A stretch of 64,000 bases of DNA from assembly GCA_964590105.1 (NCBI GenBank), contig CAZPYM010000002.1, positions 90,697 through 154,696 of the forward strand, read 5' to 3'. Below, piece by piece: positions 4,459-53,506 of the stretch. Made by a program: the position numbers and the translations under genes. Source of the DNA: an uncultured Gammaproteobacteria bacterium (GTDB lineage Bacteria > Patescibacteriota > Patescibacteriia > UBA11705 > JABHMO01). The notes below the pieces were generated by a model. That model saw nothing but the letters and a program-made list of their open reading frames with translations, was not told where the DNA came from and did no database searches. Position 1 is the first letter of the stretch. Every line of letters starts with the position of its first letter.

Positions 4459-4772
4459 ATACTAGGTTAGATGATTAAAAGAAAAAACTAAGAAATTAAT
4501 AAATTAAGAAAACAAGAAAAAAGGACCTTCTAATAAACTTAGCTTTGAAAAGTATAGCTCAAAATTAAATGTCTGTCAATGATTTTTTCTCTTGCAATTT
4601 TTTAGATAGTAATATAAAATTTTTACAAGAACTAACTTATCAACAGATTACTAACAGTTTAGACGCCTTTGGGGACATTTCAACAGCTTGTCCACATCTG
4701 CTTGCAGTGCTAAAATACAATCGTTAACAAGAATCTCGCTTCAGCAGGCTAACAAAAATAAAAATCCTTACT

Positions 4773-6152
4773 ATGGAAGATCAAAATCTACAACTTTGGC
4801 AAGCAGTGCTGGGCGAACTCGAGCTAACGCTGAGTAAGGCAAGCTTTACCACTTGGCTGAAAAATACTTTTATTATTGAAAATGAAGACGGCCGGATTGT
4901 TATCGGCGTGCCGAATACTTTTTCCCAAGCCTGGCTAAAACAAAAATATCATCAGAAAATTTACAACCTAATACAATCAAAAACCAAAGACCGAATTAAA
5001 GAAATCCACTATAAAGTCCAAAGCGTAAAAAATTATCAGGAAGAAATTAAAACACTGAAAAAACAAATTGTTGAAACAGCTCAAAATCAAGTAATACCCA
5101 CCAACCCTTCTTCCCCGACAAAAGTTCTGGGGCTCAATCCCAAGTATATATTTAACAATTTTATTGTTGGTAAAGGCAATGAACTGGCGCACGCCGCTTC
5201 CATTGCCGTGTCAGAACGACCGGGATTAACTTATAATCCTCTTTTTATTTACGGCGGCGTTGGTCTCGGAAAAACTCACTTATTGCATGCCGTTGGCAAT
5301 ACTATTTCTGCAAAAGATCCGAGTAAAAAAATTCTTTACGTTACTTGTGAGCAATTTACAAATGATTTCATAAGCGCCATCTCTTCCGGCCGAGCGGAAA
5401 AATTTAATATTGCCTACCGCACAGTGGATGTCCTCCTGATCGACGATATTCAATTTCTAACCGGCAAAGAAGGAACACAGGAAGCGTTTTTTCATACTTT
5501 TAATGACCTTCACCAGCGGGACAAACAAATTGTTTTGACTTCCGACCGACCGCCAAAAGCGATCGCCACGCTGGAAGACCGGCTTCTCTCAAGGTTTGAA
5601 TGGGGGATGATCGCTGATATTTCTCAGCCTGATCTTGAGACCAGAATTGCCATTTTAGAAGCAAAATGCCAGGAAAAAGAATTTGAATTGGAACGGGACA
5701 TCATTCAATATATTACCCTGAATATTCAAAACAACATTCGGGAGCTCGAAGGCGCTCTAAATAAAATAATAGCTTATCATCAACTGAACAAAATCACTCC
5801 CACCCTTGAAAACGTTAAAAAGATACTTTTTTCCATTTCCACTTCCAGCAAAAAAACCGGCGCTGTGTCCGCTCGTCAGCTGATTGAACTGGTTTGCGAT
5901 TTTTATGATTTGACAATTGACGATATGCTCGGCAAGAGCCGGGAAAAAAGACTGGCTTTCCCTCGCCAAATCATTATGTTTCTTCTTCGGGAAGAACTTC
6001 AATGCTCTTATCCAATGATTGGCAATGAACTCGGCGGCCGTGACCACACCACGGCTATGCACGCCCACGAAAAAATTTCCAGAGTCATGGAGTCGGATGA
6101 AAAAACCAGGCAGGAAATAAATTTAATCAAGCAAAGAGTTTACGCGCACTGA
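4773..6152 (+). CDS. dnaA: Chromosomal replication initiator protein DnaA
   Basis: AAA+ Walker A GGVGLGKTHLLHAVG, sensor/box VII region and C-terminal DNA-binding domain (FPRQIIMFLLREELQCSYPMIGNELGGRDHTTAMHAHEKI). Flanked by rnpA/rpmH and dnaN. Confidence 0.97.
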   Translation: MEDQNLQLWQAVLGELELTLSKASFTTWLKNTFIIENEDGRIVIGVPNTFSQAWLKQKYHQKIYNLIQSKTKDRIKEIHYKVQSVKNYQEEIKTLKKQIVETAQNQVIPTNPSSPTKVLGLNPKYIFNNFIVGKGNELAHAASIAVSERPGLTYNPLFIYGGVGLGKTHLLHAVGNTISAKDPSKKILYVTCEQFTNDFISAISSGRAEKFNIAYRTVDVLLIDDIQFLTGKEGTQEAFFHTFNDLHQRDKQIVLTSDRPPKAIATLEDRLLSRFEWGMIADISQPDLETRIAILEAKCQEKEFELERDIIQYITLNIQNNIRELEGALNKIIAYHQLNKITPTLENVKKILFSISTSSKKTGAVSARQLIELVCDFYDLTIDDMLGKSREKRLAFPRQIIMFLLREELQCSYPMIGNELGGRDHTTAMHAHEKISRVMESDEKTRQEINLIKQRVYAH

Positions 6153-6457
6153 TATCCTGTGGAAAACTCCCCGGTTTCAAGGGATAAAATAAGTGGATAA
6201 AAACAAGTCCAATCTGTTCATAAATATCTACCTCGCGGTTTTCCTTCAATAGTCTGTTTTTGTCCCCTGCTCTGATACAGGCATATCAACAATTCATCCA
6301 TAGACCTGTTTGCATAAAATTAAATTAAACAAAGGCTTATCCACCGCTATCCACAGCATTATTATTATTATTATTTTTATATATATATAATTTCTTATAA
6401 TAAGAAGAAGAGCAAATCAATTAAATAGAAAAAAATAAGTCATAAAAAAACTGGGAT
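6153..6457. other. Putative oriC in the dnaA-dnaN spacer: DnaA boxes plus AT-rich unwinding element
   Basis: agtggataa at 6192-6200 (reverse complement TTATCCACT). ttatccacc at 6338-6346 and ctatccaca at 6347-6355. Followed by the pure A/T tract attattattattatttttatatatatataatttcttataataa (about 6360-6410). An additional near-box ttgtccaca at 4688-4696 lies upstream of dnaA. Confidence 0.6.
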
Positions 6458-9629: not shown

Positions 9630-10100
9630 TTACGCTTTGGAAATAATATAATACCCAATTGCGCCAAAAGCCACGGAAACGTTTAAGCTTTCTTTGTCGC
9701 CGAGCATGGGAAGGTGAATTATTTTGTCACAACTTTTTTGAATATGAGCAGATATTCCCCTGACTTCATTGCCGAGGATAATGGCGACTTTATCTTTCGG
9801 GCGCCACTTTCTGAAATCCATGCTGGTTGTTTTGGTTTTTTCGAGGCCGATAATTTCGTAGCCCTGTTTTTTTAGTTCGTGCAATGTTGGCGCGAGTATG
9901 ATTTTCTTTTCCCACGGTACAGCCATCTCAGCGCCGAGCGCGGTTTTTGCCAGCCGGAGCGGTTGTTCTTTTGGCGACGCGGTATAGCCGGCTAAATAAA
10001 GTTTTTCCGCGCCGATCGCGTCGCAGGTGCGAAAAATTGAGCCGACATTATAAAGGCTACGGATATTATGGGCGATGATGATTATATTTGGTTTTTTCAT
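9630..10100 (-). CDS. SpoU/TrmH-family RNA 2'-O-methyltransferase (TrmL-like, SPOUT fold)
   Basis: 156 aa. IIIAHNIRSLYNVGSIFRTCDAIG ... AIILGNEVRGIS ... SLNVSVAFGAIGY are the three SPOUT motifs. Confidence 0.75.
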   Translation of the reverse strand: MKKPNIIIIAHNIRSLYNVGSIFRTCDAIGAEKLYLAGYTASPKEQPLRLAKTALGAEMAVPWEKKIILAPTLHELKKQGYEIIGLEKTKTTSMDFRKWRPKDKVAIILGNEVRGISAHIQKSCDKIIHLPMLGDKESLNVSVAFGAIGYYIISKA

Positions 10101-10178
10101 GAGATTAAGGTAAAATGTTATTAATGCGAAAGCCGGAATAAAGGCTGAAACGGCCTTCTATTTTCTAACATAGCAAAT

Positions 10179-11198
10179 ATGATTGAGGATAACAATAATC
10201 GAATTGTCTCTGCTAAGCTTGATGAAAATGACGGAAGCATTGATTTGAGTTTGCGGCCGAAAAAACTCGATGACTTTGTCGGCCAGCAAAAAATAAAAGC
10301 CAATTTGAATATATTTATGGAGGCGGCTAGGAAAAGGGGCGAACCGATAGAGCATGTTCTGCTCTACGGGCCGCCAGGGCTCGGAAAAACGACGCTGGCG
10401 CACATTATAGCCAATGAGATGGGTGCAAACATGCGAGTGACCACGGGGCCCGCAATTGAGAAGAGCGGGGACCTGGCGGCGATCCTTACAAATCTTGAAC
10501 CGGGAGACGTTTTATTTATCGATGAAATTCACCGGCTGAACCGGGTGGTAGAAGAAGTTTTGTATTCAGCAATGGAAGATTTTGTTTTGGATATTGTTAT
10601 TGGCAAGGGACCGTCGGCCAGAACATTGAGATTGGACATTCCTCACTTTACACTGATCGGCGCGACCACCAAGCTTTCTAAATTATCGTCACCTCTTCGC
10701 GATCGCTTTGGCAATACGTATCATTTGGAATTTTACGAAAATGAAGATATTGATAAAATAATAAATCGCTCAGCCGGAATATTAAATGTGAATTTTGTCG
10801 AGCCTTGTTCTCTTGAAATTGCCAAAAGAGCCAGGAAAACTCCGCGCATTGCCAATCGTCTTTTGAAAAGGATCCGCGATTTTGCCGAAGTGAAGAATCA
10901 AGGACAAATTAACCGTGAAATAGTGGAGCAAACAGTGCAGATGCTGGCAGTGGATCAGCATGGTCTTGATGATATTGACAGGAAAATTCTTTTGACGATA
11001 ATTGAAAAATTCGGCGGCGGACCGGTTGGCTTGAATACTATTGCCGCGGCTACTTCTGAGGAAATGGAGGCCATTGAAGACGTGTATGAACCGTATTTAT
11101 TGCAGTTGGGCTTTATCAATCGTACAAATCGTGGTAGAATAGTAACAGATGAAGCTTACAAACATTTAGGAATTGAAAAACGTAATTTGCTTTTGTAA
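10179..11198 (+). CDS. ruvB: Holliday junction branch migration DNA helicase RuvB
   Basis: [12 protein letters not shown], Walker [19 protein letters not shown], Walker [10 protein letters not shown] and the C-terminal winged-helix. Confidence 0.95.
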
Positions 11199-11262
11199 AT
11201 TTTTGAATTCCCCAGTTTTCCAGTTTCCTAATTACCTGATTTCTTGTTTTCTTGTAATTTGT

Positions 11263-11298
11263 TATTTGTCCGCCATAGGCGGATGCGCCTTGGGCGCA
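11263..11298. repeat. GC-rich palindromic intergenic repeat element, copy 2
   Basis: tatttgtccgccataggcggatgcgccttgggcgca, i.e. adjacent hairpins ccgccataggcgg and gcgccttgggcgc. Confidence 0.45.
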
Positions 11299-11322
11299 TA
11301 ATTTGTAATTTTTCGCTATTGT

Positions 11323-11568
11323 ATGGCAATTCCACTTTCAACATTTTTGTTTGTTTACCTGCTCTATATTCTAGTTTTTTTGTTTTTTAGTTTTTTTAAT
11401 TTGTATCACATGCTAAGGTACGGGTTTGTCAGTTTTCTCGCCTATGTGGTTACTGTCGGATACATTATTATTACCCTGTTGGCCTTATTTGTTTCCTATT
11501 ATTATTTGGCGCAGGTCGACTGGAGTCAGACAATTGATATTTATAAGGCATCTGGGGGAATTTATTAA
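11323..11568 (+). CDS. Small integral membrane protein, hypothetical
   Basis: 81 aa with two hydrophobic helices. Directly upstream of the bPH_2 protein (3-nt gap). Confidence 0.35.
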   Translation: MAIPLSTFLFVYLLYILVFLFFSFFNLYHMLRYGFVSFLAYVVTVGYIIITLLALFVSYYYLAQVDWSQTIDIYKASGGIY

Positions 11569-11570
11569 AT

Positions 11571-12128
11571 ATGTACAGCCATCATCATTTTCCAAATCAA
11601 AAACCAAACGAGCATGTGCTCATGTTTTTGCGCCGGCATTGGATCGTGGTTTTGAAACTTTTAGGCATTAGTTTGTGCTTGGTTTTAATCCCGGTTTTTT
11701 TCTTTATCATTTATATTAATTACACGGATTATTTTGAAAATGAAATTGTTACCGCTATCATAATTCTTTTAACCAGCGCTTTTTATTTATTTATAATTTT
11801 ATATACGTTTAGTAGTTTTGTTGACTATTACTTGGACGTCTGGATTGTTACAAATCAGCGAATAATTAATATTGAACAAAAGGGTTTATTCGCCAGGGTT
11901 GTTTCAGAAAAAGATTTAGGCAGGATGCAGGATATCACTTCTGATATTGAAGGATTTTGGGCCACGGTATTAAACTACGGGGATGTCCATATTCAGACTG
12001 CCGGAGAAAAAGAAAGATTTATTTTCAAACAGGTGCCTTTTGCTGATGAAGTTTCCCGCAGGATCAGCAATCTGGTTTCTGAATATCAAAAGATAAACAA
12101 AGATACGCCGCTCGATAAAGTAGGTTAA
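11571..12128 (+). CDS. Membrane-anchored bacterial PH-domain (bPH_2/YdbS-YdbT-like) protein
   Basis: Two N-terminal TM helices, then a domain of the type VWIVTNQRIINIEQKGLFARVVSEKDLGRMQDI ... GDVHIQTAGEKERFIFKQVPFADEV, typical of PF03703. Confidence 0.55.
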   Translation: MYSHHHFPNQKPNEHVLMFLRRHWIVVLKLLGISLCLVLIPVFFFIIYINYTDYFENEIVTAIIILLTSAFYLFIILYTFSSFVDYYLDVWIVTNQRIINIEQKGLFARVVSEKDLGRMQDITSDIEGFWATVLNYGDVHIQTAGEKERFIFKQVPFADEVSRRISNLVSEYQKINKDTPLDKVG

Positions 12129-12146
12129 AACATACAAAAACAAAAA

Positions 12147-12184
12147 ATACCCCGCCGCTCGTAAAAGGCAGGGTATTTTTTTTG
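12147..12184 (+). terminator. Rho-independent terminator
   Basis: ataccccgccgctcgtaaaaggcagggtat followed by ttttttttg. Confidence 0.6.
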
Positions 12185-12390
12185 TGGAAAATTGTAGTGT
12201 CCGTTGCGAAGCGACAAACAAACGCGCCTCGCCACTGTGAAGAATTTTGATTTTAGCAAAAGAACAGAGTTGCTTTTTTGTTTTTTCCCAATAAAGACCT
12301 TATTGGGCTTGACTGGACCGCGTGTTTCAGCGGCCTGATTTTGTTTTGATTGTAGATTTGTCCCGATTAGGGAGGTTTATTGCTTAATTA

Positions 12391-14040
12391 TTAATATATT
12401 TTTTCTATATTAATTCCTGAATAATAATATTTCAGAATCTGGTCATATGTCCAGCCCAATTTTTCCGCTCTGGCTTTGGCGTCCTGCTGGTCAATGCCCA
12501 CGCCGTGACCCCATTTAGCCAAGTCTTTTGTGTATGGAGTTTCAACTGATTTTAAATACGGATATTTACTGCTGGTCAAGGTTTGGCCACCACTTCTGGC
12601 CGAATAAAATGCAATAATTACTTCGTCGGAGTGAGTGAGCACAGTTCCCGCTGTTTCCGCCACAATATTTGCCTGATTGGGCATTATAGTTTCCGCTATG
12701 TATCCTTTGTAAACTTGATCTCTTTCATCGGGATAAAGGTCAAATGGGCTGTCTTCGACTTTAAATTTGTTCACATGATAAAGAGCATAGGTTCTAGCGG
12801 CGATCGTCATAGCTTTCTGATATTCAGCTGGATCTGGGTTTGACGTTTCTTTCATTCCTTTTAGGTAATCAGCCAGTGGTAAAGTATTTACCACCCAGAC
12901 TCTCTCGGTTGGTTGATAAAAAATTAAACTCAGGTTGCCGCGAAATTGATTGTAATTAATTGATTTATTCCAATCTGCCAGATCAGTCAGACTTAAGATG
13001 GTAAAAATGCCGTCGTTGAAATTTTTTAAATATAAACTCGAACTCGTTCGTACGGTTGTATTGATAAAATCAAAAGTATATTCTTTTTTTGCTTCGCTAT
13101 AGTTAAATAGAATTTCCACATCTGCGGGGACAGAGGCAAGCAGCGTGTCATTTTTGTCGTAAACTTGCCAAGCTTGATTATTTTTGATTAGCACGGATTT
13201 GTCTGTGTGAAATAACCCCACTCTTACATCGGGACCTTTTTCCGGCAATGAAAAAGCGCTGACGCAGGTTAAATTGTCAATGCCGCTGGTAAGCGCGGCA
13301 ATATTTAATCTTAGTGTGCAGATATTTAATTTTGGTACCGGCGCGCTGACAACGGCAGTCGCGGTTGTTGTGACTATTTGCGCCGAAGGGATTTGAACTG
13401 TTTGTTTTTCTGAAGCAAACTCTTCCGGATGTTCGACTACATTCATCCCTACTGAGACATCGCCGCCTTTTATCATCGTGTTGTCGGAAACCAGAACAAA
13501 ATCTCCTGAATACAAATTAAGATTTTTTGGCGCTTGCAGGGCGAATTTAAAAGTGCCGGTTTCGCCGGGATTAACTATTTTTTCTTGAAGTTGAGCCGGC
13601 AGATAGGGGTCGGGCCAGAACGAGTGTCTAAATTTAAGCGCTGTGGTGAGCGATTTTAAATATACTTTTTCTTTTGTCCAAATTGCCGTGCCTGTGTTCT
13701 TGAAACTAAGATTAAAAGTAAAAGCTTGCTCTGGCTGGATGTTGATCTGCTTGTGCGATTGAAAAATTGATTCAGCTTCATATGTTACCTCAGCGGCCAG
13801 CGCCACTTTGGCAAAAATTGGAATATTTTTATTTTGAGTCTCTGGAATAAGCGTTGATTCAAATGACCGGAGTCCAAAAGCCGCAACCATGACAATGACT
13901 AAAGAAAATAAAATATGGCCAAAAACATTAAGGCCGGAAGTTTCATCTTTGGCTTTTTGATATAGTTTATTTTCTTTAATCCTTGTCTTTTCGAGCGTGG
14001 AGTTCCAAAAATAAGACAAGTATTTGTGTCTGGATTGCAT
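12391..14040 (-). CDS. SpoIID/LytB-domain protein (amidase enhancer-like) with N-terminal membrane anchor
   Basis: C-terminal region IIAFYSARSGGQTLTSSKYPYLKSVETPYTKD...GHGVG carries the SpoIID/LytB signature. TM helix near the N-terminus. Confidence 0.7.
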   Translation of the reverse strand: MQSRHKYLSYFWNSTLEKTRIKENKLYQKAKDETSGLNVFGHILFSLVIVMVAAFGLRSFESTLIPETQNKNIPIFAKVALAAEVTYEAESIFQSHKQINIQPEQAFTFNLSFKNTGTAIWTKEKVYLKSLTTALKFRHSFWPDPYLPAQLQEKIVNPGETGTFKFALQAPKNLNLYSGDFVLVSDNTMIKGGDVSVGMNVVEHPEEFASEKQTVQIPSAQIVTTTATAVVSAPVPKLNICTLRLNIAALTSGIDNLTCVSAFSLPEKGPDVRVGLFHTDKSVLIKNNQAWQVYDKNDTLLASVPADVEILFNYSEAKKEYTFDFINTTVRTSSSLYLKNFNDGIFTILSLTDLADWNKSINYNQFRGNLSLIFYQPTERVWVVNTLPLADYLKGMKETSNPDPAEYQKAMTIAARTYALYHVNKFKVEDSPFDLYPDERDQVYKGYIAETIMPNQANIVAETAGTVLTHSDEVIIAFYSARSGGQTLTSSKYPYLKSVETPYTKDLAKWGHGVGIDQQDAKARAEKLGWTYDQILKYYYSGINIEKIY

Positions 14041-14452
14041 AAAATTAAAGCTGCCTTAAGCTTTAAGGAAAGTCTTTGACAGCACGTTAAAAGTCCGTCG
14101 ATCAGCAAATTCTGATTTTTTGCCGTTATTCCAACGATGCACCGGGCTTAGGTAGCCGACAACTCTGGAATAAACTTCACACTTCTGCCGTTTTGATTGT
14201 GTTTGTAGTGGGGACATATGTGTAAATAAATTACAAATAATAAATAACAAATTACAAGTAACAAATTGATTTAAAATAAACGAGCGCTCATAGAAAAAGC
14301 ACTCGTTTTACATCTCCACATTATAATTATAGCAAAGTTTTTTGGGTTTGTCAATGCATTGGCTAAAGTTAGTGCTTAAGGTTGGCGGAGGCGGAAGTTG
14401 TTTTTATCGTTTGTTTCTAAATTTACAGCAAGAAAACCAAAAATCAATCGGA

Positions 14453-15061
14453 TTAAAGTGATTTTTTGATTTTTTCCGCTAATTTAAGAAAATCTTTTTC
14501 ATTATATTTGAAATCATTTTGATCGCCGTTAGCAATTATTATTGGACAATCCTTGAAATCTCGGCTCCATTCTTCGTAAAGATGATTTAAATCTGAGATA
14601 TAGGTGTTATTCAGGTGAAATTCTACGTTTCGGTTCCTTTTAGTGATGTTTTTAATACAGCGGTCAGTTGAGGATTTTGCATAAATGATTAATTCCGGTG
14701 GAGTCAGTGTTTTCTTTATAGCTTTGTAAAGATTATTGTAAGTCTGCCAATCAGCTTCGTCCAAAAGTCTGTTTTGGTAAAGGTTTTTTACAAAGACTTC
14801 AGCGCCCTCGTATATACAACGGTCCTGCACTGTCGGCAGATTGCTTTCAATTATCTGCAAATGATCTTGCAATCGGCGGCCGAGAAAAAACACTTCGCAT
14901 TTGAAAGCCCATTTGCCCATATCCTGATAATATTTTTCAAGGTAAGGGTTTTCTTCAAACGGTTCCTGAAAATATTCCCAGCCAAAATGATTGGCCAGTT
15001 TTTTTGCCAGATTGGTTTTTCCCGAGCCGATATTGCCGGCAATGGCAATGAATTTTTTCAT
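14453..15061 (-). CDS. Deoxynucleoside kinase (dCK/dGK family)
   Basis: P-loop IAIAGNIGSGKTNLAKKL, FQEPFEENPYLEKYY and an ERS-like region. About 200 aa, typical of the family. Salvage enzyme. Confidence 0.85.
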   Translation of the reverse strand: MKKFIAIAGNIGSGKTNLAKKLANHFGWEYFQEPFEENPYLEKYYQDMGKWAFKCEVFFLGRRLQDHLQIIESNLPTVQDRCIYEGAEVFVKNLYQNRLLDEADWQTYNNLYKAIKKTLTPPELIIYAKSSTDRCIKNITKRNRNVEFHLNNTYISDLNHLYEEWSRDFKDCPIIIANGDQNDFKYNEKDFLKLAEKIKKSL

Positions 15062-15302
15062 AAAAGTTTTTTTGATATCTTTATCTTAGCATTATTTATA
15101 AATTAAAAATATGGCTGAAATTGGGGTGGTTCATCATATAAGGTAAAAAAATAAAAACGCATCAAGGAAATTAATGTGTTTTTGGAAGTTTTTTAAAATT
15201 GTTTTTGCATTATACTCACTGGAAGAATGGCTGCGCCATTCGCCGTGCTTCGCCATAGCGGCTACGCGACGGCAAGTAGCCCCGTTTTAGTAGGGTGAAG
15301 AA

Positions 15303-15379
15303 TGGTGGACCCGGCAGGCCTCGAACCTGTGACCTCTTCCATGCCATGGAAGCGCTCTAGCCAACTGAGCTACGGGCCC
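15303..15379 (-). tRNA. tRNA-Ala (anticodon GGC)
   Basis: Reverse complement gggcccgtagctcagttggctagagcgcttccatGGCatggaagaggtcacaggttcgaggcctgccgggtccacca. G3:U70 Ala identity pair present. Confidence 0.8.
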
Positions 15380-15404
15380 TGAACCTGAGTGAACGAATGG
15401 TACA

Positions 15405-15480
15405 TGGTGGGCGCAGGAGGACTCGAACCTCCGACCAATTGGTTAAGAGCCAACTGCTCTACCAGCTGAGCTATGCGCCC
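15405..15480 (-). tRNA. tRNA-Lys (anticodon CTT)
   Basis: Reverse complement gggcgcatagctcagctggtagagcagttggctCTTaaccaattggtcggaggttcgagtcctcctgcgcccacca. Confidence 0.85.
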
Positions 15481-15558
15481 CCGGATGAAAGCAAAAAAAT
15501 AATACCGCAATATTATTGTTTTGTAAAGAAAAATTTTCAATAAAGGTCCCGCACAAAG

Positions 15559-15631
15559 TGCACCCGGCACGATTCGAACGTGCAACTCCTTGGTCCGAAG
15601 CCAAGTACTCTATCCATTGAGCTACGGGTGC
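15559..15631 (-). tRNA. tRNA-Arg (anticodon TCG)
   Basis: Reverse complement gcacccgtagctcaatggatagagtacttggctTCGgaccaaggagttgcacgttcgaatcgtgccgggtgca. No encoded CCA. Confidence 0.8.
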
Positions 15632-15651
15632 ACTTTATACGGGACGATATT

Positions 15652-16365
15652 TTAGTTCCAGCCTTTTTCTTCAAGAGCATTTCTGGCTGCGTCTTCCTGC
15701 GCTTCTTGTTTGCTTGAACCAGTACCCGTGGCGACCAGCTCGGTTTTTAGATAAATGCCGATTTCAAATTCTTTGTCATGGTCAGGGCCGCTTTCGGATA
15801 GAACTTTATAACTGGGAGTAATGCCGGCTTTTTCCTGAGCCATTTCCTGAAAGCTGCTTTTGGGATCAAGATATAATTTTTTGTCCAGTATTTCCGGCAA
15901 TTCAGACAAAATAAATTTAGTAATGAATGTTTTTGCCGCATCCCAGCCTTGATCTAGATAAATTGCGCCGATCAAAGATTCCATGGCATTAGCTAAAATA
16001 AATTGTCTGGCCTTTCCTGTGTCTTTTTGTTCTCCTTTGCTTAAAAAGAGGCAGTTTTCAAAATCAATGTCGCTGGCGATCTTTGAAAGAATTTTACTGT
16101 TTACCAAGCTTGCCCGCCAATTGGTCAGTTCGCCTTCAGGATTTGGATATTTGTTATATAAGTATTCAGTTACAACTAATTCCAATACCGCATCGCCTAG
16201 AAATTCCAGGCGTTCATTGTGATCAAGTGCAAACCCTGGGTGTTCATTCAAATATGAACGGTGAACAAGGGCTTGTTTCAGTAAATTTTCGTCATTGAAT
16301 TTTGTGCCGATTGTTTTTTCCAAGGATTTTAAGTTCTTTTCCATAATGCAAAGAACAGAAAACAA
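15652..16365 (-). CDS. rnc: Ribonuclease III
   Basis: RNase III signature ERLEFLGDAVLELVVTEYLY plus a C-terminal dsRBD. The true start may be the MEKNLKSL Met at 16344. Confidence 0.95.
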   Translation of the reverse strand: MFSVLCIMEKNLKSLEKTIGTKFNDENLLKQALVHRSYLNEHPGFALDHNERLEFLGDAVLELVVTEYLYNKYPNPEGELTNWRASLVNSKILSKIASDIDFENCLFLSKGEQKDTGKARQFILANAMESLIGAIYLDQGWDAAKTFITKFILSELPEILDKKLYLDPKSSFQEMAQEKAGITPSYKVLSESGPDHDKEFEIGIYLKTELVATGTGSSKQEAQEDAARNALEEKGWN

Positions 16366-16409
16366 TAATCAGTAAACATTGAGCTGTTTGCTAATTACTG
16401 CCTTCTGTT

Positions 16410-16898
16410 TTATTTATTTAAATCGTCCGGGGCCGTTTTTTCTTTTTCTTTTGTCGGCGTTTCTTTGTCTTCCGACTTTTTTGTGGGCCCTATGTCTTTG
16501 TATATTGAACCGAGCACGCCATTAACAAACTTACCCGAAGATTCTCCGCCAAAAGTCTTGGCAATTTCAATTGCCTCATTGATGGCGACTTTGGAGGGAA
16601 TATCAGGATTAAAGGCCAGCTCGTAGATGCCGATTCTTAAAATATTACGGTCAACATTGGTAATCTGTTCCAGCGGCCACTCCGGCGCGTATTTCTTGAT
16701 GTAATTGTCAATCGCCAGCAAATTGTCCGTTACTCCCTTGATCAGTTTGTCTGTGAAGGAATTGTCGTGAAATTCCGGCGCGAACGATTGATAATTATAT
16801 TGGATGATTTCATCCAAATCTTGTTTTTTTTGTCCTTTGAAGTCCCACTCAAAGAGTGTCTGAAGGGCAATCGTTCTTGCTAAGTGTCTGTTTGACAT
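16410..16898 (-). CDS. nusB: Transcription antitermination factor NusB
   Basis: [17 protein letters not shown]... and [14 protein letters not shown]... are NusB hallmarks. Has a C-terminal K/E-rich tail. Confidence 0.85.
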
Positions 16899-17058
16899 AT
16901 AAAGATATAAAGATCAAATTTATTTTTGTTTGTAAATTTTATTATGGTTGTCACTAGTGAGAATACCTGATTTTGTAAAAAAAGGCAAGCCTAGTAAATT
17001 GGTGAGTTGGCTGATTGACGCGCCGGTAAAAATTTGGTATTTTAAATAAGCGCAATAT

Positions 17059-18429
17059 ATGAGTTTTAAAACAGTTTCAGTCAAAATTATTGCAGTTGTT
17101 TTGCGGGCGAGTTCAGCTGCCCTTAAGCGGCTTTTCCAAAGGCTACGTTTTATTCGGAGCTTTTTTGCTTTGTTGGGAAAAATGGGTTTTCGGTTTTTTG
17201 TTTTTCCGTTTTACAGACTGTTGTACTTGTTTAAATATAAAGCGCTGAATGTCTACGCGCCGGCAAAAAATAGAATGTCTTATGTTTTGAATAAAACATA
17301 TTTGATTCATGTGGCGATTGTCTTGATCGGCGTTGTTGTAACCTGGAATAGCATCATGGCCAAGGACTTGAGGGAAGAAAACTTTGGTGAACAAACTGTT
17401 ATTTATTCAGTAATTTCCAAAGAAGAATTGGAGGTCCTGACGGAAGAGACTCAATTGGATTCTTCTAGTGGAAAAATTTTAAGTTATTTGGACAAAAGCG
17501 CGACCATGGAAAGTCAGAAAATAATCACTGACGCTCCTTCTGCGTCGTCTGATCAGCTGGCCACAGAATTTTCTACGGTTACCGAGGGCGGCGCCGCCGT
17601 GGTCAAGCCAAACATTCTCGGAGAGGTCAAGCCTGAAGATTTGCCCGGAGCGGGAGTTCCTTCTCGTCAGGGGATTACTACTTATGTAGTGCAGGCCGGT
17701 GAAACAGTGTCCGCAATTGCCGAGAAATACAACATTAGTGTTGATACAATCCTGTGGCAAAATAATTTAAGCGTCAGGAGTTTAATCCGCGCCGGAGATA
17801 AATTGGAAATATTGCCCACGTCAGGCGTCCTGCATACGGTCACGTCCGGTGAAACGGTCGGCGCGATTGCTAAAAAATATTCTGTCGAAGTGGAAAAAAT
17901 TATTTCATTTAATAATTTATTTGATGTCAATGATATAAAAAAAGGGCAGAAACTGATAGTCCCCGGCGGAAAAATAGTTGCTCCATATATTGCCCCTAGC
18001 CAATACGCGCAGGTACCGCAAGTGTCGCCAATCAGTAAATTATTTATTCCGCCGGCCCAGCAAATCCAGACTAGCGGTATGCTTTGGCCGACCAGCGTGC
18101 GGCGCATTTCCCAGTATTACAGCTGGCGTCATACGGCCATTGATATTGCCGGACCGACCGGCACGCCGATTTATGCTTCAGATTCGGGAACTGTAATTTT
18201 TGCAGGCTGGTCTACCGGATATGGAAATAATATTTTGATTGATCATGGTGGCGGAATGCAGACACGTTACGCTCACGCTTCCAAACTTTATGTGGGCAAG
18301 GGTGACGCAGTTGTCAAAGGTCAGACAATCATGGCTATGGGTTCAACCGGCTGGTCAACTGGTCCCCATGTTCATTTTGAGATTATTGTTAACGGTGTAA
18401 AAAAGAATCCGCTGTCATACGTAAAATAA
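17059..18429 (+). CDS. LysM-domain M23 family metallo-endopeptidase (cell wall hydrolase)
   Basis: Two LysM repeats (YVVQAGETVSAIAEKYNISVDTILWQNNL; HTVTSGETVGAIAKKYSVEVEKIISFNNL). C-terminal M23 motifs HTAIDIAG...GYGNNILIDHGGGMQTRYAH...GSTGWSTGPHVHFEI. Start codon uncertain. Confidence 0.85.
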   Translation: MSFKTVSVKIIAVVLRASSAALKRLFQRLRFIRSFFALLGKMGFRFFVFPFYRLLYLFKYKALNVYAPAKNRMSYVLNKTYLIHVAIVLIGVVVTWNSIMAKDLREENFGEQTVIYSVISKEELEVLTEETQLDSSSGKILSYLDKSATMESQKIITDAPSASSDQLATEFSTVTEGGAAVVKPNILGEVKPEDLPGAGVPSRQGITTYVVQAGETVSAIAEKYNISVDTILWQNNLSVRSLIRAGDKLEILPTSGVLHTVTSGETVGAIAKKYSVEVEKIISFNNLFDVNDIKKGQKLIVPGGKIVAPYIAPSQYAQVPQVSPISKLFIPPAQQIQTSGMLWPTSVRRISQYYSWRHTAIDIAGPTGTPIYASDSGTVIFAGWSTGYGNNILIDHGGGMQTRYAHASKLYVGKGDAVVKGQTIMAMGSTGWSTGPHVHFEIIVNGVKKNPLSYVK

Positions 18430-23577: not shown

Positions 23578-24128
23578 GTGAAAATAATATGTCTGTTGAT
23601 ATTATACAGTTTTACTGGCGAGCCAACAACTCCGGAAAACAAATTAACGGAAGTAAGCTATTTTTTCAAAAAAAAAGCGCGAACTGTACGCCCTATGAAA
23701 TAAATTATATGGCGAGCTCGCGCTCGTGTCTTGTGTAAAGCCGGCCTTCTTAGATAACTTTTAGAAGGTGTCATCCTTAAAAGCACAAAGCTTTCAAGAC
23801 TGTTGTGTGGACATCTGGTGTTTACCCTTCCACGGGAGAGCCGCTAGGGATCCCTGGTGAAATTTTTGTTTTTGTTTTTGATTGATCGAAATAGGAAGAG
23901 TAAGTAGATGTAATGGACCGAATGGCCCTAGAGTGAATTTTCCAAACTCAACTTGGAAAGTTGTGTTCAAAGAGCAAGTTTGCGAAAGAACATGTAGAAA
24001 TTGATGCATGGATCACTTCCTACCTCTATATTATAGCACGTTGAAAATACCCGGTCAAGGGTTTTAGGCAATTTTTGTAAATTTAGTTATTTCTTGTGAG
24101 AATTAAATGAATTGATAGGGTGTGAGCT

Positions 24129-24165
24129 GTGGATAACTCTGTGGATTTATCTACCTTATCCACAT
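24129..24165. promoter_or_regulatory. Cluster of three DnaA boxes (two perfect, convergent) outside oriC
   Basis: tgtggataa at 24129-24137 (reverse complement TTATCCACA, perfect). tgtggattt at 24141-24149 (7/9). ttatccaca at 24157-24165 (perfect). Confidence 0.5.
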
Positions 24166-24176
24166 GTTTGTATACA

Positions 24177-25400
24177 CTAGTCTATACAAATCGTATTTTG
24201 ATTGAAAATTCCAGTACGAAGAACAATATGATTGAAGAAGTTACTTAGCTCGGCACTTTGGGGTTTGATATATAGACAATTTTTTGAAAACATGCCGGAA
24301 CAGCTGGTCGTGTTTATGTTGGCCGGCGATGAAACGATTGATTCATGCGGAAAATTATTATTAATAATCAGCTGACCGTCGACTTCGGTTAGTCGAAGGT
24401 CTAAATTTATTTTTGGTTCAGTCAAAATGTATTGTTGTTGGTAGTCACTGACAACAGTTTCAAATTTCCAAGCATTAGGATCAGCTATATATTGAATGGC
24501 CGTGGTTTGATCCGGCAGCAGTTTTGATTTTTCGCTAGGTAATGTTTGGGCTAGAATATTTAGGATGAACGACTGAAGCTGTTCGGTCGGGTTTTCTTTT
24601 TGAGAAGCGATTATCATGAATCCGTCCGGTGTTTGGGCAAATTCCACTGCCCCGTTTAATGATTTAAGCAGATGAAAAATAAAATTCTGCGGCGAATATT
24701 CTGCGTTTTGAACAATTTTTCCTGGAAATATATTGTTGAAGTAGGCACTGGTATCAGCCGGCAGGACAGAAATTTGTGGTTTTTCGTGCCTACCAACTTC
24801 TTGTCCGGTGAGCCCGTGAGTTTTCAAACAAAGAGTGTTTTCGTGCGCACTGCCGGCCAATGCCAGCGGTGAAGATGGCTGATCCGCGACAAAAGGGATT
24901 TTTAAAGTGCGGATGTCTTTTATATAGATGAGAAAATTCGTAAAAGCTATTTTGCGCCGCGTTTGTTTGAACCATTCCGTTTCATGTAGTTTGTCGGCGG
25001 AAACAGTCAGTCGTGGGAAAAACAAGACTTTGCCTTCGCGCGTGAAGGAAGTTTCATTGCGTGAGATTAGTTCGAGCGTTTTCTGCGTGTCCTTGGCTAC
25101 GGCAAACACCTGCCCATTTAAGGAAAAAAAGCCAACTTCTTCATCCAGGTGTTCAAGAATAGATTGCCATCTGCCAGCAGACATGGCGCTTTTGTCTTCA
25201 AGCCAGGAAAGATAAAAGATTCGTTGTTTTTCTGGAATTTTCAAAAGGTTTTGTGTTGTTGTGTGGAAATAGGCCTCTGCCTGCGCCGGAACGTATTTGA
25301 CAAGATGGTCGTTATGATTGAAAAACAAAAATAGCCAACAGCCGACGAAGACGGTTACTGATAAAACAAAAAGCCAGAATTTTAATCGAAAGTAACTCAT
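24177..25400 (-). CDS. Hypothetical membrane-anchored protein (407 aa)
   Basis: N-terminal TM helix; no recognisable motifs. Confidence 0.4.
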   Translation of the reverse strand: MSYFRLKFWLFVLSVTVFVGCWLFLFFNHNDHLVKYVPAQAEAYFHTTTQNLLKIPEKQRIFYLSWLEDKSAMSAGRWQSILEHLDEEVGFFSLNGQVFAVAKDTQKTLELISRNETSFTREGKVLFFPRLTVSADKLHETEWFKQTRRKIAFTNFLIYIKDIRTLKIPFVADQPSSPLALAGSAHENTLCLKTHGLTGQEVGRHEKPQISVLPADTSAYFNNIFPGKIVQNAEYSPQNFIFHLLKSLNGAVEFAQTPDGFMIIASQKENPTEQLQSFILNILAQTLPSEKSKLLPDQTTAIQYIADPNAWKFETVVSDYQQQYILTEPKINLDLRLTEVDGQLIINNNFPHESIVSSPANINTTSCSGMFSKNCLYIKPQSAELSNFFNHIVLRTGIFNQNTICID

Positions 25401-29114: not shown

Positions 29115-29354
29115 AATTTTGGCGCTTTCCACCGCTCGGCCGAGTATTCTATGAATATTCAGTAGCCGGAGCCGCAGAGGCGGGTGATTTATTTACTGAA
29201 TTTATATTATCACAAGTGGATAGATTTGGCAATAGTGACTGGTACGACTTGCGTTTTTGACTTTAGTGTCGTACAATATTGTCGGATAGATAGCGAGATC
29301 GTTTTTGTAAAAATGAAATATTAGGTCAATTTATTTTGCACCAAATTATTAGAT

Positions 29355-30227
29355 ATGTCGTCAGTAAATAAACTTATAACTGAATTTCTTTTTGACTTGA
29401 GAAAAAGAAAAAGAACCGAGCGCACGGCGCGCAACTATGATTTGTATTTACGCAGATTTTCAGGCTGGCTTGAGCAAAAGCAGATAGAAAACATGGGGCA
29501 AGTAACGCCGGAACTTATTGCCAAGTATAAAATTTGGCTAAAAAAAATAAAAAACCCGATAAAGAAAATTTATTTGAAAGAAAATACTCAGAATTATCAT
29601 TTGATTGCGCTAAGGGAGTTTATCAAGTATTTGGGAAAGAAAAAAATTTTGTCAATTACCAACCCGAAAATCAAATTGCCAAAAACCCTGAAAGTTAAGG
29701 CCGGCTTTCTCAGTAAAGAAGATGTTCAACTTTTATTGGAATCGCCAATGAAAATTTCACAACCCAGATTGATTCAGCTTCGCGATAGAGCGATATTGGA
29801 ATTGTTTTATTCTACCGGAATTCGAGTTTCTGAGGAGGCAAGCCTGCAGGTTAGCGATATAAATTTTCAAAAACAAGAAATTCTTGTTTGTTCCGGGCAG
29901 AAGAAAGAACGCAGAATTAAATTTTCCAATCAAGCCAAGCATTGGCTGGTTCAATATTTGGAAAGAAGAAAAAATAAAAGTAAATATGTTTTTGTGAGTC
30001 ACGACCGAGCAAAAGCAACAAGAGAAGATGCCGGGCTTAGCGCCAGAAGTTTAGAAAGAATAGTTGAAAAATATGCTAGAGGCGCCGGTATTGACAAAAA
30101 AGTCACTCCGCAGATGCTTCGTCATACATATGCATTTCTTTTGGTCGAAAGAACAGCTGATCCGCGGTCAGTTAAACAAAAACTCGGTCACCTTTCTCTA
30201 AATTCAGCGATGAGATACTTTGATTAA
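29355..30227 (+). CDS. xerC: Tyrosine site-specific recombinase XerC/XerD family
   Basis: N-terminal SAM-like core-binding domain. Catalytic domain with R...HxxR (LRHTYAFLL) and C-terminal LGHLSLNSAMRY containing the catalytic Tyr. Confidence 0.85.
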   Translation: MSSVNKLITEFLFDLRKRKRTERTARNYDLYLRRFSGWLEQKQIENMGQVTPELIAKYKIWLKKIKNPIKKIYLKENTQNYHLIALREFIKYLGKKKILSITNPKIKLPKTLKVKAGFLSKEDVQLLLESPMKISQPRLIQLRDRAILELFYSTGIRVSEEASLQVSDINFQKQEILVCSGQKKERRIKFSNQAKHWLVQYLERRKNKSKYVFVSHDRAKATREDAGLSARSLERIVEKYARGAGIDKKVTPQMLRHTYAFLLVERTADPRSVKQKLGHLSLNSAMRYFD

Positions 30228-30540
30228 TCGTTTTTTTCGTGCTCGTTTCACTCGGTCGGAAACAGGGGGCGAAAGTTAATTGTTCCAAGTGTTGTAATCC
30301 GAACTTCGTGTATTATTGAAAAAAACTATTGTTTATGTTAGCATTACGGCGCCCTTTTACCTTTGCTCGTCCGAGCAAAGGTATTGTTCCTATCCTGCAA
30401 TTGCACATTACGCCTTATTACCCACTATTCGGTTGGAGCACTCACCACGAGTGCTCGCTATTTTTTTACTTTTAACGCATTTAAATAGGACCCTTTTGCT
30501 ATAAATATTGATTTAGTTTATGTTTTTAGATATGAATTGA

Positions 30541-30568
30541 TTGACTATATATAGTAATCTGCTATAAT
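30541..30568 (+). promoter_or_regulatory. Strong sigma70-type promoter for tRNA-Arg (TTGACT, 16 nt, TGcTATAAT extended -10)
   Basis: ttgactatatatagtaatctgctataat; the tRNA starts 22 nt downstream. Confidence 0.55.
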
Positions 30569-30589
30569 TTTTTCAGAAAACGCACATAC

Positions 30590-30664
30590 GTCCCTATAGT
30601 TCAGTGGATAGAACACCAGCCTTCTAAGCTGGATACGCAGGTTCGATTCCTGCTGGGGACACCA
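30590..30664 (+). tRNA. tRNA-Arg (anticodon TCT)
   Basis: gtccctatagttcagtggatagaacaccagccttCTaagctggatacgcaggttcgattcctgctggggacacca. Anticodon loop cTTCTAa, so TCT. Confidence 0.85.
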
Positions 30665-30962
30665 TTTCGTTGGTAGTAGAAAGTGAAGAAGGGTTTACGG
30701 GATGTAATTGTAATATTAATTTAATATGACGCAGGTAAGACAGGGTGGATTCAGAATTTAAGTTGTTTAGCAATTAACCCAATTTAATATGAATAAAAAA
30801 AGAAAAGTTGCCATTAAGAAACAGCAAAAAAAGCAGGGAAAAGATGTACGATGCAGGTATAGATAATTTGCTGAAACGCTTGTAATATCAATTTATAATA
30901 ATATTTTACGACACTTTTTTGGTATTAATTTTATTATAATTATTGTTTTATCATGGCATTAA

Positions 30963-30984
30963 TAGGGCTAAATGTTCCACGTGG
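30963..30984. promoter_or_regulatory. Perfect 22-bp palindrome AAATGTTCCACGTGGAACATTT, copy 1
   Basis: Read directly; identical core at 31635-31656. Confidence 0.5.
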
Positions 30985-31062
30985 AACATTTTTATAATCT
31001 GATTCATGCGGGCTGAATTCGTTCAGCGAGTTCATTACCTAACTTACTTAATTTCTTTGCGT

Positions 31063-31137
31063 GCTCCCGTAGTTCAGTGGATAGAACAAGACACTCCTAA
31101 CGTCTAGACGCAGGTTCGATTCCTGCCGGGGGCACCA
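31063..31137 (+). tRNA. tRNA-Arg (anticodon CCT)
   Basis: gctcccgtagttcagtggatagaacaagacactCCTaacgtctagacgcaggttcgattcctgccgggggcacca. One A:C mismatch in the anticodon stem; otherwise a close paralogue of the tRNA at 30590. Confidence 0.75.
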
Positions 31138-31634
31138 TGAATCACTTGCCCCTTTGGGACTCGGGTTCATGGCAAGCCATGAATATTAGAATATCTGTGG
31201 ATCTCGGGTTCATTCTTCCCGTGCACTTGAACACAGAAAGCAGTACATGGGCAACGGCGTTGATTGTGAAATGAATTTGGAAGCTGTTATCTTTGAGTAA
31301 ACAATACTAATTTGAAGTTAGTATTTTTTGTTTGCTAAAGCAATGTACAAATATCAAGAATCAATGATAAATGGTAATATTGCTCGTATTGCTGGACGGA
31401 TTTTATGAATAATGCAGGATTTGCTCGAATATTAAATAGCCCAATATTTTATAAAACACCAAAAACTGTGGAAAACATGGTGATAACTGTTGATTTTTGG
31501 GCTATTTGTACACACTAGTGTAGCCAAGTGGGGGGGCTTGGGTTTAGTAAATTGGAAATTCGGAATTGGGGTTGATGGGAAATTTAGTAATATTGATAGC
31601 TCAAAAAAAAACTAAAGAAGATTTGCTGGTAAAA

Positions 31635-31656
31635 AGAAAAAAATGTTCCACGTGGA
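31635..31656. promoter_or_regulatory. Perfect 22-bp palindrome AAATGTTCCACGTGGAACATTT, copy 2
   Basis: Read directly; about 80 bp upstream of the start of the TrmB-family regulator gene (minus strand). Confidence 0.5.
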
Positions 31657-31736
31657 ACATTTGTACAAACATTCAGAAGGACATTTGATTTTGTTAGTCA
31701 TTTTATATGAATATATGAGTCGCAAAATAATAATTA

Positions 31737-32498
31737 TTAGTATTTCAATGTTTTAGCTGATTTCCATGCTTGTTCGAAAAGTGTTTTATGTGTTTCAGCC
31801 AAATCCTTGTTTTCAATAATGATCACGTAATATTTGTTTTTGTTATAAGGCAGGAAGGCAATTTTATTGCCAAAAATAATATTATCACCGCGACCGCAAC
31901 CAAATTTTTTGTTAAAAAAGCGAATTGTATGATTAGGGTTTTTAATTTTTGTAACAACATTGGCGTATTTTACGTTTGCTTCATCAAGGGGGAGGAGCTC
32001 GCGGGTTTTTACGTCGGGATTTTTTAAAGTGTCTTTATATTCTTCGAATATATCTGAATAAAGATCTACAGGTTCAATAATTGAACCATAAAAAACAGCT
32101 TCTTGGCCGGTTTTCAGAAAATTAAGAACCTCGCGGTAAACCTGCACCACCCCATCCTTTCCTTCAAAAAATTGAACTTCCGGTTTGTTAGGCTGTTGGT
32201 TATATATCGCCATCAAGTTTGGAATAGCCTTTTCTAGGTTCTTCTCTCGCTGCTTTAATTGGGTCAATAGATTCTTTGGTGAAGCGGCGCTATATAGCGT
32301 GGCTTTTTTTGTTTTGCGAAAACTGACAAGTCCGCGTTCTGCTAGGGTTTGAAGGATTACATAGGTTGTCGGGCGTTTAACTCGGGCAATTGTTGAAATA
32401 TTAAAAACCGTGTCTTCGCCCAACTGAAGACAAGTAAGGTAAATGGCGGACTGTTTTTGATCAAAGCCAATTGATTTTAGTGTTTGTGAGAGTTCCAT
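31737..32498 (-). CDS. TrmB-family transcriptional regulator (N-terminal winged HTH plus C-terminal sensor domain)
   Basis: MELSQTLKSIGFDQKQSAIYLTCLQLGEDTVFNISTIARVKRPTTYVILQTLAERGLV is a TrmB-type wHTH. Confidence 0.65.
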   Translation of the reverse strand: MELSQTLKSIGFDQKQSAIYLTCLQLGEDTVFNISTIARVKRPTTYVILQTLAERGLVSFRKTKKATLYSAASPKNLLTQLKQREKNLEKAIPNLMAIYNQQPNKPEVQFFEGKDGVVQVYREVLNFLKTGQEAVFYGSIIEPVDLYSDIFEEYKDTLKNPDVKTRELLPLDEANVKYANVVTKIKNPNHTIRFFNKKFGCGRGDNIIFGNKIAFLPYNKNKYYVIIIENKDLAETHKTLFEQAWKSAKTLKY

Positions 32499-52807: not shown

Positions 52808-53506
52808 TTAAGAAAAGGCTTTTTTAATTTCATCAAAATCAACTTCAATAAACCTGCCAAAAAATTTCGTGATATTTCGTAAATCTCTATCCAGGATTTC
52901 CTCTGCATTAGGATTGGTCCTTTTGTCTAATGCTTGAGGAAAATCAATAACATAAGGCTCGTTATCCCACCAAAGGACATTATATTCTGACAAATCCGCA
53001 TGAACTATGCCAAAATTCCAAAGCACAATCATTGTATCCAATATTTTCTTGAAAGCATTTTTTGCTTCATCTGCCGATAAGTCAACATCGCATAATCTGG
53101 GAGCTGCAATTTCTCGATTGCCTAAAAATTCCATAAATATTGCATCTCCAATATGTAATACGGGTTTTGGAATCTTGGCTCCCGCCGTATATAATTTTTC
53201 AAGTATGAAATATTCTCTTTTTACCCAATTTTGGTGCTTTAATTTTTTGGCAAATTTATTTCCTTTAGCTACAGCTTTTCTGTGAGATGGTTTCTTATAA
53301 TATTTGCCCATCAAGTATTGACCTGTGTTTTTGAATGATCTTTCTTCAGGTTTTTTATAGACTTTCATCGCAACTAATTGATTGTCTAGTATAACTTTAT
53401 AAACAGTTGCTTCTTTCCCAGATTTTATATTAGAAACCATCTTAATTTCATGATTGAGACGTTTTGCTTCATCAATTATATTTTTAACTTCATTGTTTAT
53501 TGTCAT
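52808..53506 (-). CDS. RIO-type serine/threonine protein kinase
   Basis: GKEATVYKV (ATP-binding), IVHADLSEYNVLW (catalytic loop), YVIDFPQA (metal-binding) are the RIO1 family signatures. Confidence 0.7.
   Translation of the reverse strand: MTINNEVKNIIDEAKRLNHEIKMVSNIKSGKEATVYKVILDNQLVAMKVYKKPEERSFKNTGQYLMGKYYKKPSHRKAVAKGNKFAKKLKHQNWVKREYFILEKLYTAGAKIPKPVLHIGDAIFMEFLGNREIAAPRLCDVDLSADEAKNAFKKILDTMIVLWNFGIVHADLSEYNVLWWDNEPYVIDFPQALDKRTNPNAEEILDRDLRNITKFFGRFIEVDFDEIKKAFS

Follow-up and report, generated by a model that had tools for sequence, protein, structure and literature searches.

Two copies of a perfect palindrome in a tRNA-Arg locus

In the 64,000-nucleotide stretch of DNA analysed in this study (hereafter the window), a gene for an Xer-like recombinase and a gene for a TrmB-domain protein are separated by an intergenic region that carries one and the same perfect palindrome twice. 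The question raised by this locus is what the repeated palindrome stands for: an operator of the regulator encoded next to it, the end of a mobile segment, a transcription terminator, or a site for the maintenance of the chromosome itself.

By exact-match search of the window, the 22-mer AAATGTTCCACGTGGAACATTT was found in two copies with a spacing of 671 bp (Table 1), in agreement with the perfect 22-bp palindrome described in the initial annotation; the coordinates given there, 30963-30984 and 31635-31656, have to be raised by 7 and 6 nt, respectively. No third copy was detected in the 64-kb window with up to three mismatches, the 14-bp core with two mismatches allowed returned the same two sites only, and no match is expected in the shuffled window. 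The palindrome is real and far from chance, and the suspicion that it might be abundant and randomly distributed did not hold within the window, where it is present in two copies only.

Table 1. Features of the palindrome locus and of the origin region, with positions in the window
Feature	Position	Strand	Basis and context
Probable bipartite oriC	4637..6355	.	flanks dnaA; DnaA boxes, gene order, GC skew
Xer-like tyrosine recombinase	29355-30227	+	left flank; XerA/C/D-like score below curated cut-offs
Near-consensus extended -10 promoter, TTGACT-16-TG-TATAAT	30541-30568		precedes tRNA-Arg(TCT)
tRNA-Arg(TCT)	30590..30664	+	ARAGORN, Rfam
Predicted parS site 1	30970..30991 (core TGTTCCACGTGGAACA, 30973-30988)	.	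between the two tRNA-Arg genes; exact match
tRNA-Arg(CCT)	31063..31137	+	ARAGORN, Rfam; between the predicted parS sites; also in the single-parS relative L138
Conserved block, three DnaA-box-like 9-mers	31455..31520	.	120-190 nt from predicted parS site 2
Predicted parS site 2	31641..31662 (core 31644-31659)	.	about 75 nt 3' of the TrmB-like stop codon
TrmB-domain protein	31737-32498	-	N-terminal TrmB wHTH domain, residues 7-75

The two tRNA-Arg genes (TCT and CCT) and the strong promoter noted earlier in this region were confirmed, the former by both ARAGORN and Rfam and the latter as the near-consensus extended -10 match in front of tRNA-Arg(TCT). Besides the two tRNAs, no Rfam family was detected in the region at gathering or E-value thresholds. 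The gene callers predicted no gene between the Xer-like and TrmB-domain genes. Contrary to the initial annotation, the region does contain, in purely formal terms, one ORF above the 60-aa limit, with 62 aa and a TTG start (30316-30504), which is probably spurious. A conserved ORF of 25 codons is located at 30789-30866 on the plus strand and encodes a very basic peptide, MNKKRKVAIKKQQKKQGKDVRCRYR. Its counterpart in the related genome L138, MNKKRKVAIKKQQKKRGKVTNCRHR, has equal length and the same stop, and eight of the 13 differing codons are synonymous, which points to a real small gene. The peptide gave no NCBIfam match, and no homologue was found beyond L138 among the loci compared.

Support was lacking for the description of about 500 bp in this region as hairpin-rich, the 503 bp after tRNA-Arg(CCT) folding with z values of -1.4 and -1.65 against shuffled sequences. 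Directly after this tRNA, at 31152-31213, two 19-nt direct repeats (CTTTGGGACTCGGGTTCAT and CTGTGGATCTCGGGTTCAT) are located 43 nt apart, and may be what is left of tRNA 3' halves or of an ancient integration.

Identity of the 16-bp core with parS

The 16-bp core of the palindrome, TGTTCCACGTGGAACA, is letter-for-letter equal to validated parS sites of Pseudomonas aeruginosa, i.e., the wild-type parS2 and parS3 that were mutated in a previous study (PMC4368675, Table 1), and the same sequence is given as the parS of P. putida in a review (PMC7022226). Both window sites match the 16-bp palindrome pattern tGTTNCACGTGAAACa. When compared with TGTTNCACGTGAAACA, the parS consensus for Firmicutes, Actinobacteria and Proteobacteria (PMC7022226, Table 1), 14 of the 16 positions of TGTTCCACGTGGAACA agree, with N taken as a free position, and the two departures, the symmetric C5 and G12, make the window site a perfect palindrome.

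Based on the identity to validated parS, the association of the motif with parAB elsewhere, the proximity to the origin and the conservation in relatives, as described below, the two palindromes are very probably chromosomal parS, the cis-acting centromere of the ParABS partition system. The parS site is an already known, textbook element, and as is true of parS, the palindrome within the window is present in few, clustered copies (two in 64 kb) and not as a dispersed repeat.

Distribution of the motif and its association with parAB

One genome per GTDB species (596 Gb) was scanned for the 18-mer ATGTTCCACGTGGAACAT, which is carried by at least 120 stretches of these genomes, against approximately nine expected by chance with equal base frequencies over 596 Gb. 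The matches listed belong to Bacteroidota, Acidobacteriota, Planctomycetota, Nitrospirota, Spirochaetota, Firmicutes, Actinobacteria, all classes of Proteobacteria and several Patescibacteria. By profile search, a ParB gene was detected in 38 of the 120 listed 8-kb motif loci and in none of the 80 control loci (480 kb), which had been chosen for the presence of a TrmB homologue. In a motif scan of the 120 listed loci, 25 were positive for GERRxRA (ParB box II), 34 for a Walker A motif of the ParA type and nine for DnaA. Two complete chromosomes are included among the matches listed; the distance of the site to the end or start of the sequence is 17 kb in that of Neobacillus and 29 kb in that of Terriglobus roseus.

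Among the matches listed, which comprise 148 sites from various phyla, 30 sites have the full 22-mer of the window, and A occupies the position next to the 18-mer in 55% of the sites. The extra A/T bases are thus common across phyla, and the length of 22 bp is not special.

In other CPR genomes (L015, L048, L086, L094 and L141), three to eight perfect 16-mers are present within about 1 kb. Dense arrays of perfect parS are located at 5507-6296 of L141, at 7008-7813 of L094 (eight in 800 bp) and at 6877-7758 of L086; in addition, a contig of only 619 bp (L114) carries five perfect parS 16-mers, and L082 carries four, spaced by approximately 120-147 bp. Four of the L141 sites are inside a called gene for a 696-aa Wzy_C protein (4928-7018), an ORF that may be mis-called.

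Distance to the replication origin

The gene order rnpA-dnaA-dnaN is present at 4.2-7.6 kb of the window, with rnpA on the minus strand, dnaA at 4773-6152 and dnaN at 6458-7585. DnaA boxes with at most one mismatch were identified upstream of dnaA (4637 and 4688) and in the dnaA-dnaN spacer (6158, 6192, 6337 and 6347). The GC skew changes its sign and reaches its minimum at dnaA, being negative for at least 10 kb leftward and positive rightward. The two palindromes are located on the right replichore at 24.8 and 25.5 kb from dnaA. The gene order, the DnaA boxes and the GC-skew minimum altogether place the predicted parS sites at approximately 25 kb from oriC, a distance that is typical for parS.

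The presence of a DnaA-box-like block beside the palindromes (see below) prompted consideration of the palindrome locus as the main oriC; this was rejected, the switch in GC skew and the densest boxes both flanking dnaA. Perfect DnaA boxes occur only twice in the window, as TGTGGATAA and TTATCCACA at 24128-24164, in inverted orientation and with a spacing of 19 bp. This pair is intergenic, upstream of a gene for a 407-aa protein (24177-25400) and 18 kb from dnaA.

Conservation in the same population and in relatives

Ten contigs from several samples are 100% identical to the locus and represent the same population. Five of them span the segment bracketed by the two palindromes, all in one orientation, and the other five end inside the region. 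The TrmB-like protein has its closest named relative in Candidatus Kuenenbacteria (77% identity), and the gene content, including small hypothetical genes and many TrmB paralogues, fits Patescibacteria/CPR.

Among the other genes of the window, a flotillin/Band_7 gene at 1207-2907 (plus strand) includes a long coiled-coil region rich in Ala, Glu and Lys, which accounts for the local GC content of 0.61 (about 0.40 elsewhere); rRNA or foreign DNA was rejected as the source of this high GC. An H+-pyrophosphatase is encoded at 44524-46545, and a RIO1-type atypical protein kinase at 52808-53506 (minus strand) is encoded in this bacterial (CPR) genome. The RIO1-type kinase family is usually archaeal or eukaryotic.

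The comparison with related genomes, proposed as a check in the initial annotation, yielded the answer, site 1 being kept in one relative and the place of site 2 in another. In L138, a 77% relative, the locus is syntenic in the order TrmB, tRNA-Arg(CCT), parS, tRNA-Arg(TCT), Xer, rpsO and pnp. The intergenic DNA of L138 is mostly unalignable, and what is kept are the tRNAs, a 20-nt island, AAATGTTCCACGTGGAACAT, at site 1, and a few other blocks. Site 2, together with about 280 bp, is absent from L138 and L227 (both 77% relatives). In L228, a 66% relative, a perfect 16-mer is located 73 nt past the TrmB stop, matching the place of site 2, and is flanked by bases that differ from those in the window, with no T-tract. 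As judged from these alignments, selection appears to act on the 16-bp palindrome, not on a hairpin followed by a T-run or on a larger repeat unit.

In the window (30904-30915, plus strand), in L138 and in L228 (835-846), parS is preceded at approximately 55-70 nt by a conserved motif, TTTTACGACACT, and an inverted copy with one mismatch is found upstream of rpsO-pnp in the window (29265-29276, minus strand). The motif, which may be a lineage-specific promoter element, overlaps with a weak match to a -35/-10 promoter (ACGACA-18-TATTAT).

The T-tract also bears on a purely transcriptional role, in which the palindromes would primarily be Rho-independent terminators, copy 2 for the minus-strand mRNA of the TrmB-like gene and copy 1 for the plus-strand transcript of tRNA-Arg(TCT) and the small ORF. 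Each palindrome can be folded into a hairpin with a stem of 9 bp and a loop of 4 nt (about -10 kcal/mol; z of -3.5 to -4.7). On the plus strand, copy 1 is followed by TTTTTAT; on the minus strand, copy 2 is followed by TTTTTTTCTTTTT (T8) and was detected by the terminator scan. These T-tracts are, however, not kept, the site being followed by CTCGAACG in L138 and by AAACGCC in L228, whereas the 16-mer itself is kept. Moreover, the function of a terminator needs no exact sequence that dozens of phyla have in common and that is linked to parAB. Termination as the primary function is highly improbable, and since neither L138 nor L228 has a T-tract at the site, it should be at most a secondary role. 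The hairpin and T8 on the minus strand suggest that copy 2 may additionally terminate the transcript of the TrmB-like gene; with T-runs at both copies, the maintenance of the palindromes could be partly transcriptional.

The adjacent TrmB-like gene

The assignment of the right flank to a TrmB-family regulator was borne out by the detection of a TrmB winged-helix domain. Since this gene has minus-strand orientation, copy 2 is located approximately 75 nt downstream of its stop codon and not, as had been supposed, about 80 bp upstream of its start. The TrmB-like protein had been named as a candidate for binding to the palindromes, which would then be the operators of this adjacent transcription factor. 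The palindromes indeed adjoin its gene, and in L228 the site is again located 3' of the TrmB orthologue. TrmB-like genes are also found at 0.3-2.5 kb from perfect parS in the CPR-type loci L048, L080 and L086, and at 3.7-4.5 kb in L141. The position 3' of the TrmB gene is, however, not that of a promoter, and none of the 80 metagenomic loci with TrmB homologues (480 kb) carries a parS-like site with one mismatch or less. Furthermore, three TrmB paralogues within 8 kb of L140 are accompanied by no parS site, and the identical sequence is the proven ParB site in organisms without a TrmB-like protein. Control by the TrmB-like protein through these palindromes is thus extremely improbable. What stands of the proposed dimeric-factor operator is a palindrome for a dimeric helix-turn-helix protein; the site itself would be the ParB centromere parS and not an operator of the TrmB-like regulator.

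The TrmB family is strongly expanded in CPR genomes, and with paralogues at such density, chance proximity to parS is likely. The proximity between TrmB-like genes and parS is best explained by this dense paralogous family in CPR together with local synteny in a Kuenenbacteria-like clade. The three TrmB-domain paralogues of L140 are located at 10001-17926, and a canonical ParB is encoded at a distance of 7.4 kb.

The segment between the two copies

The neighbouring tyrosine recombinase of the initial annotation was identified as the Xer-like gene on the plus strand. Its presence suggested that the two copies could be the ends of a mobile or invertible segment (MITE, inverton, or dif- or att-like pair) on which this recombinase acts. 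The two copies form perfect 24-nt inverted repeats 645 bp apart, the Xer-like gene is 740 bp away, and the 8+6+8 layout is superficially like a recombinase core site. Against such a segment, the five independent spanning assemblies are 100% identical and in a single orientation, and no polymorphism in presence, absence or orientation of the segment was found among the ten contigs of the same population (five spanning). L138, with one palindrome only, keeps the Xer gene as well as tRNA-Arg(CCT), the supposed cargo, and no target-site duplication is visible at the flanks of the copies. In L138, the Xer gene is found in synteny with rpsO-pnp; it is XerA/C/D-like, as expected of a housekeeping gene and not of an element-borne one, and the same 16-mer is located beside parAB in dozens of phyla. 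Taken together, these observations leave the mobile or invertible segment with hardly any probability, and the earlier suggestion of a small non-autonomous element gained no support.

A conserved block with DnaA-box-like sequences

Within the same segment, the block at 31455-31520 is the sole stretch downstream of TrmB that can be aligned among four relatives, its counterparts being located at 10820-10875 in L138, 1900-1955 in L227 and 1095-1150 in L228. The boxes of the relatives are arranged as TGTGGACAA, a spacing of about 22 nt, TTATCAACA, and then TTATCCACA one helical turn on; those of the window (TGTGTACAA, TTATCACCA and TTTTCCACA) are degenerate. A short palindrome, ACACTAGTGT, is also included in the block. 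The trio is located 120-450 bp from parS in the window, L138, L227 and L228, and single DnaA boxes are present beside parS in L015, L080 and L141. Across all phyla, the enrichment of DnaA boxes near parS is only about 1.4-fold.

This block could be an accessory element beside parS, either DnaA-titrating or regulatory. A more specific proposal is that parS of this CPR lineage belongs to a composite module with the DnaA-box trio; this proposal is rather unlikely. If it were true, an element that titrates DnaA or regulates initiation would be physically coupled to the centromere at approximately 25 kb from oriC. A variant of still lower probability is that ParB is missing from this reduced genome and that parS is read by another protein.

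The cognate ParB and a model for the two sites

Neither ParB nor ParA is encoded between -5.2 and +73.6 kb in window coordinates, as examined by regular expressions, profile search, Pfam analysis of large ORFs and gene calls. Likewise, no ParB on the 594,201-bp contig carrying the TrmB gene of the window was found among the listed matches to a CPR ParB and to the ParB profile, the latter comprising at least 8000 generic ParBs. One candidate ParB (P0053) was rejected as being from an unrelated organism with the gene order gidB-parA-parB-atp. The related CPR contig L140, however, encodes a canonical ParB with both ParB_N and HTH_ParB domains, indicating that a ParB system exists in the CPR group. 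In the literature searched, no paper treating ParB, parS and Patescibacteria together was found.

The mechanism of ParB-parS is established for the family, in which CTP-bound ParB clamps slide from parS. By analogy, the sites of the window are predicted to be bound by the genome's own ParB. A ParB dimer would read the 16-bp palindrome through its helix-turn-helix domains, bind CTP, close into a clamp and slide onto the flanking DNA, so that many ParB molecules would accumulate around the sites. The origin-proximal ParB complex would then be moved by ParA and/or recruit the SMC condensin, whereby newly replicated origin regions would be separated and organised. The two parS sites, 671 bp apart, would serve as two loading points.

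The recognition of these palindromes as parS would mark where an uncultivated Patescibacteria genome has its origin-proximal centromere, and would indicate that the canonical parS sequence is unchanged in the reduced genomes of Patescibacteria; otherwise its value is that of annotation. It also guards against misreading of the palindrome as an operator of a regulator or as the end of a mobile element.

Comparison with known sites

The Xer site dif is a single-copy site of 28-31 bp, asymmetric or imperfectly symmetric, at the replication terminus. The sites of the window resemble dif in overall length, in the dyad symmetry around a 6-bp centre and in the Xer-like gene next to them. Unlike dif, they are two perfect palindromes at 25 kb from oriC, with a sequence unrelated to the arms of the dif consensus. 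The presence of two symmetric, origin-proximal copies does not fit dif.

Palindromic sites of ParB-family proteins also include the Noc-binding sites (NBS, ATTTCCCGGGAAAT) and the plasmid ParB/KorB operators. The NBS are known only from Firmicutes, where they are dispersed at sites away from the terminus. The core sequence of the window site differs from both NBS and the plasmid ParB/KorB operators, and we take the site to match parS, not NBS.

The Bacillus subtilis or universal parS consensus, TGTTNCACGTGAAACA, is reportedly the Spo0J/ParB site of Lin and Grossman in 1998 and of Livny and co-workers in 2007. The window sites share its palindromic architecture centred on CACGTG and its origin-proximal place, and they may function in ParB loading and SMC recruitment as does parS of B. 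subtilis. Unlike this consensus, the window site is the perfectly symmetric 'CC...GG' variant. The closest likeness in sequence is to parS of Pseudomonas: P. aeruginosa (parS2 and parS3) and P. putida have the same 16-bp TGTTCCACGTGGAACA, in clustered, intergenic copies near oriC as in the window. The difference from Pseudomonas is in the host, an uncultivated member of Patescibacteria/CPR, and in the location of parAB, which is not nearby.
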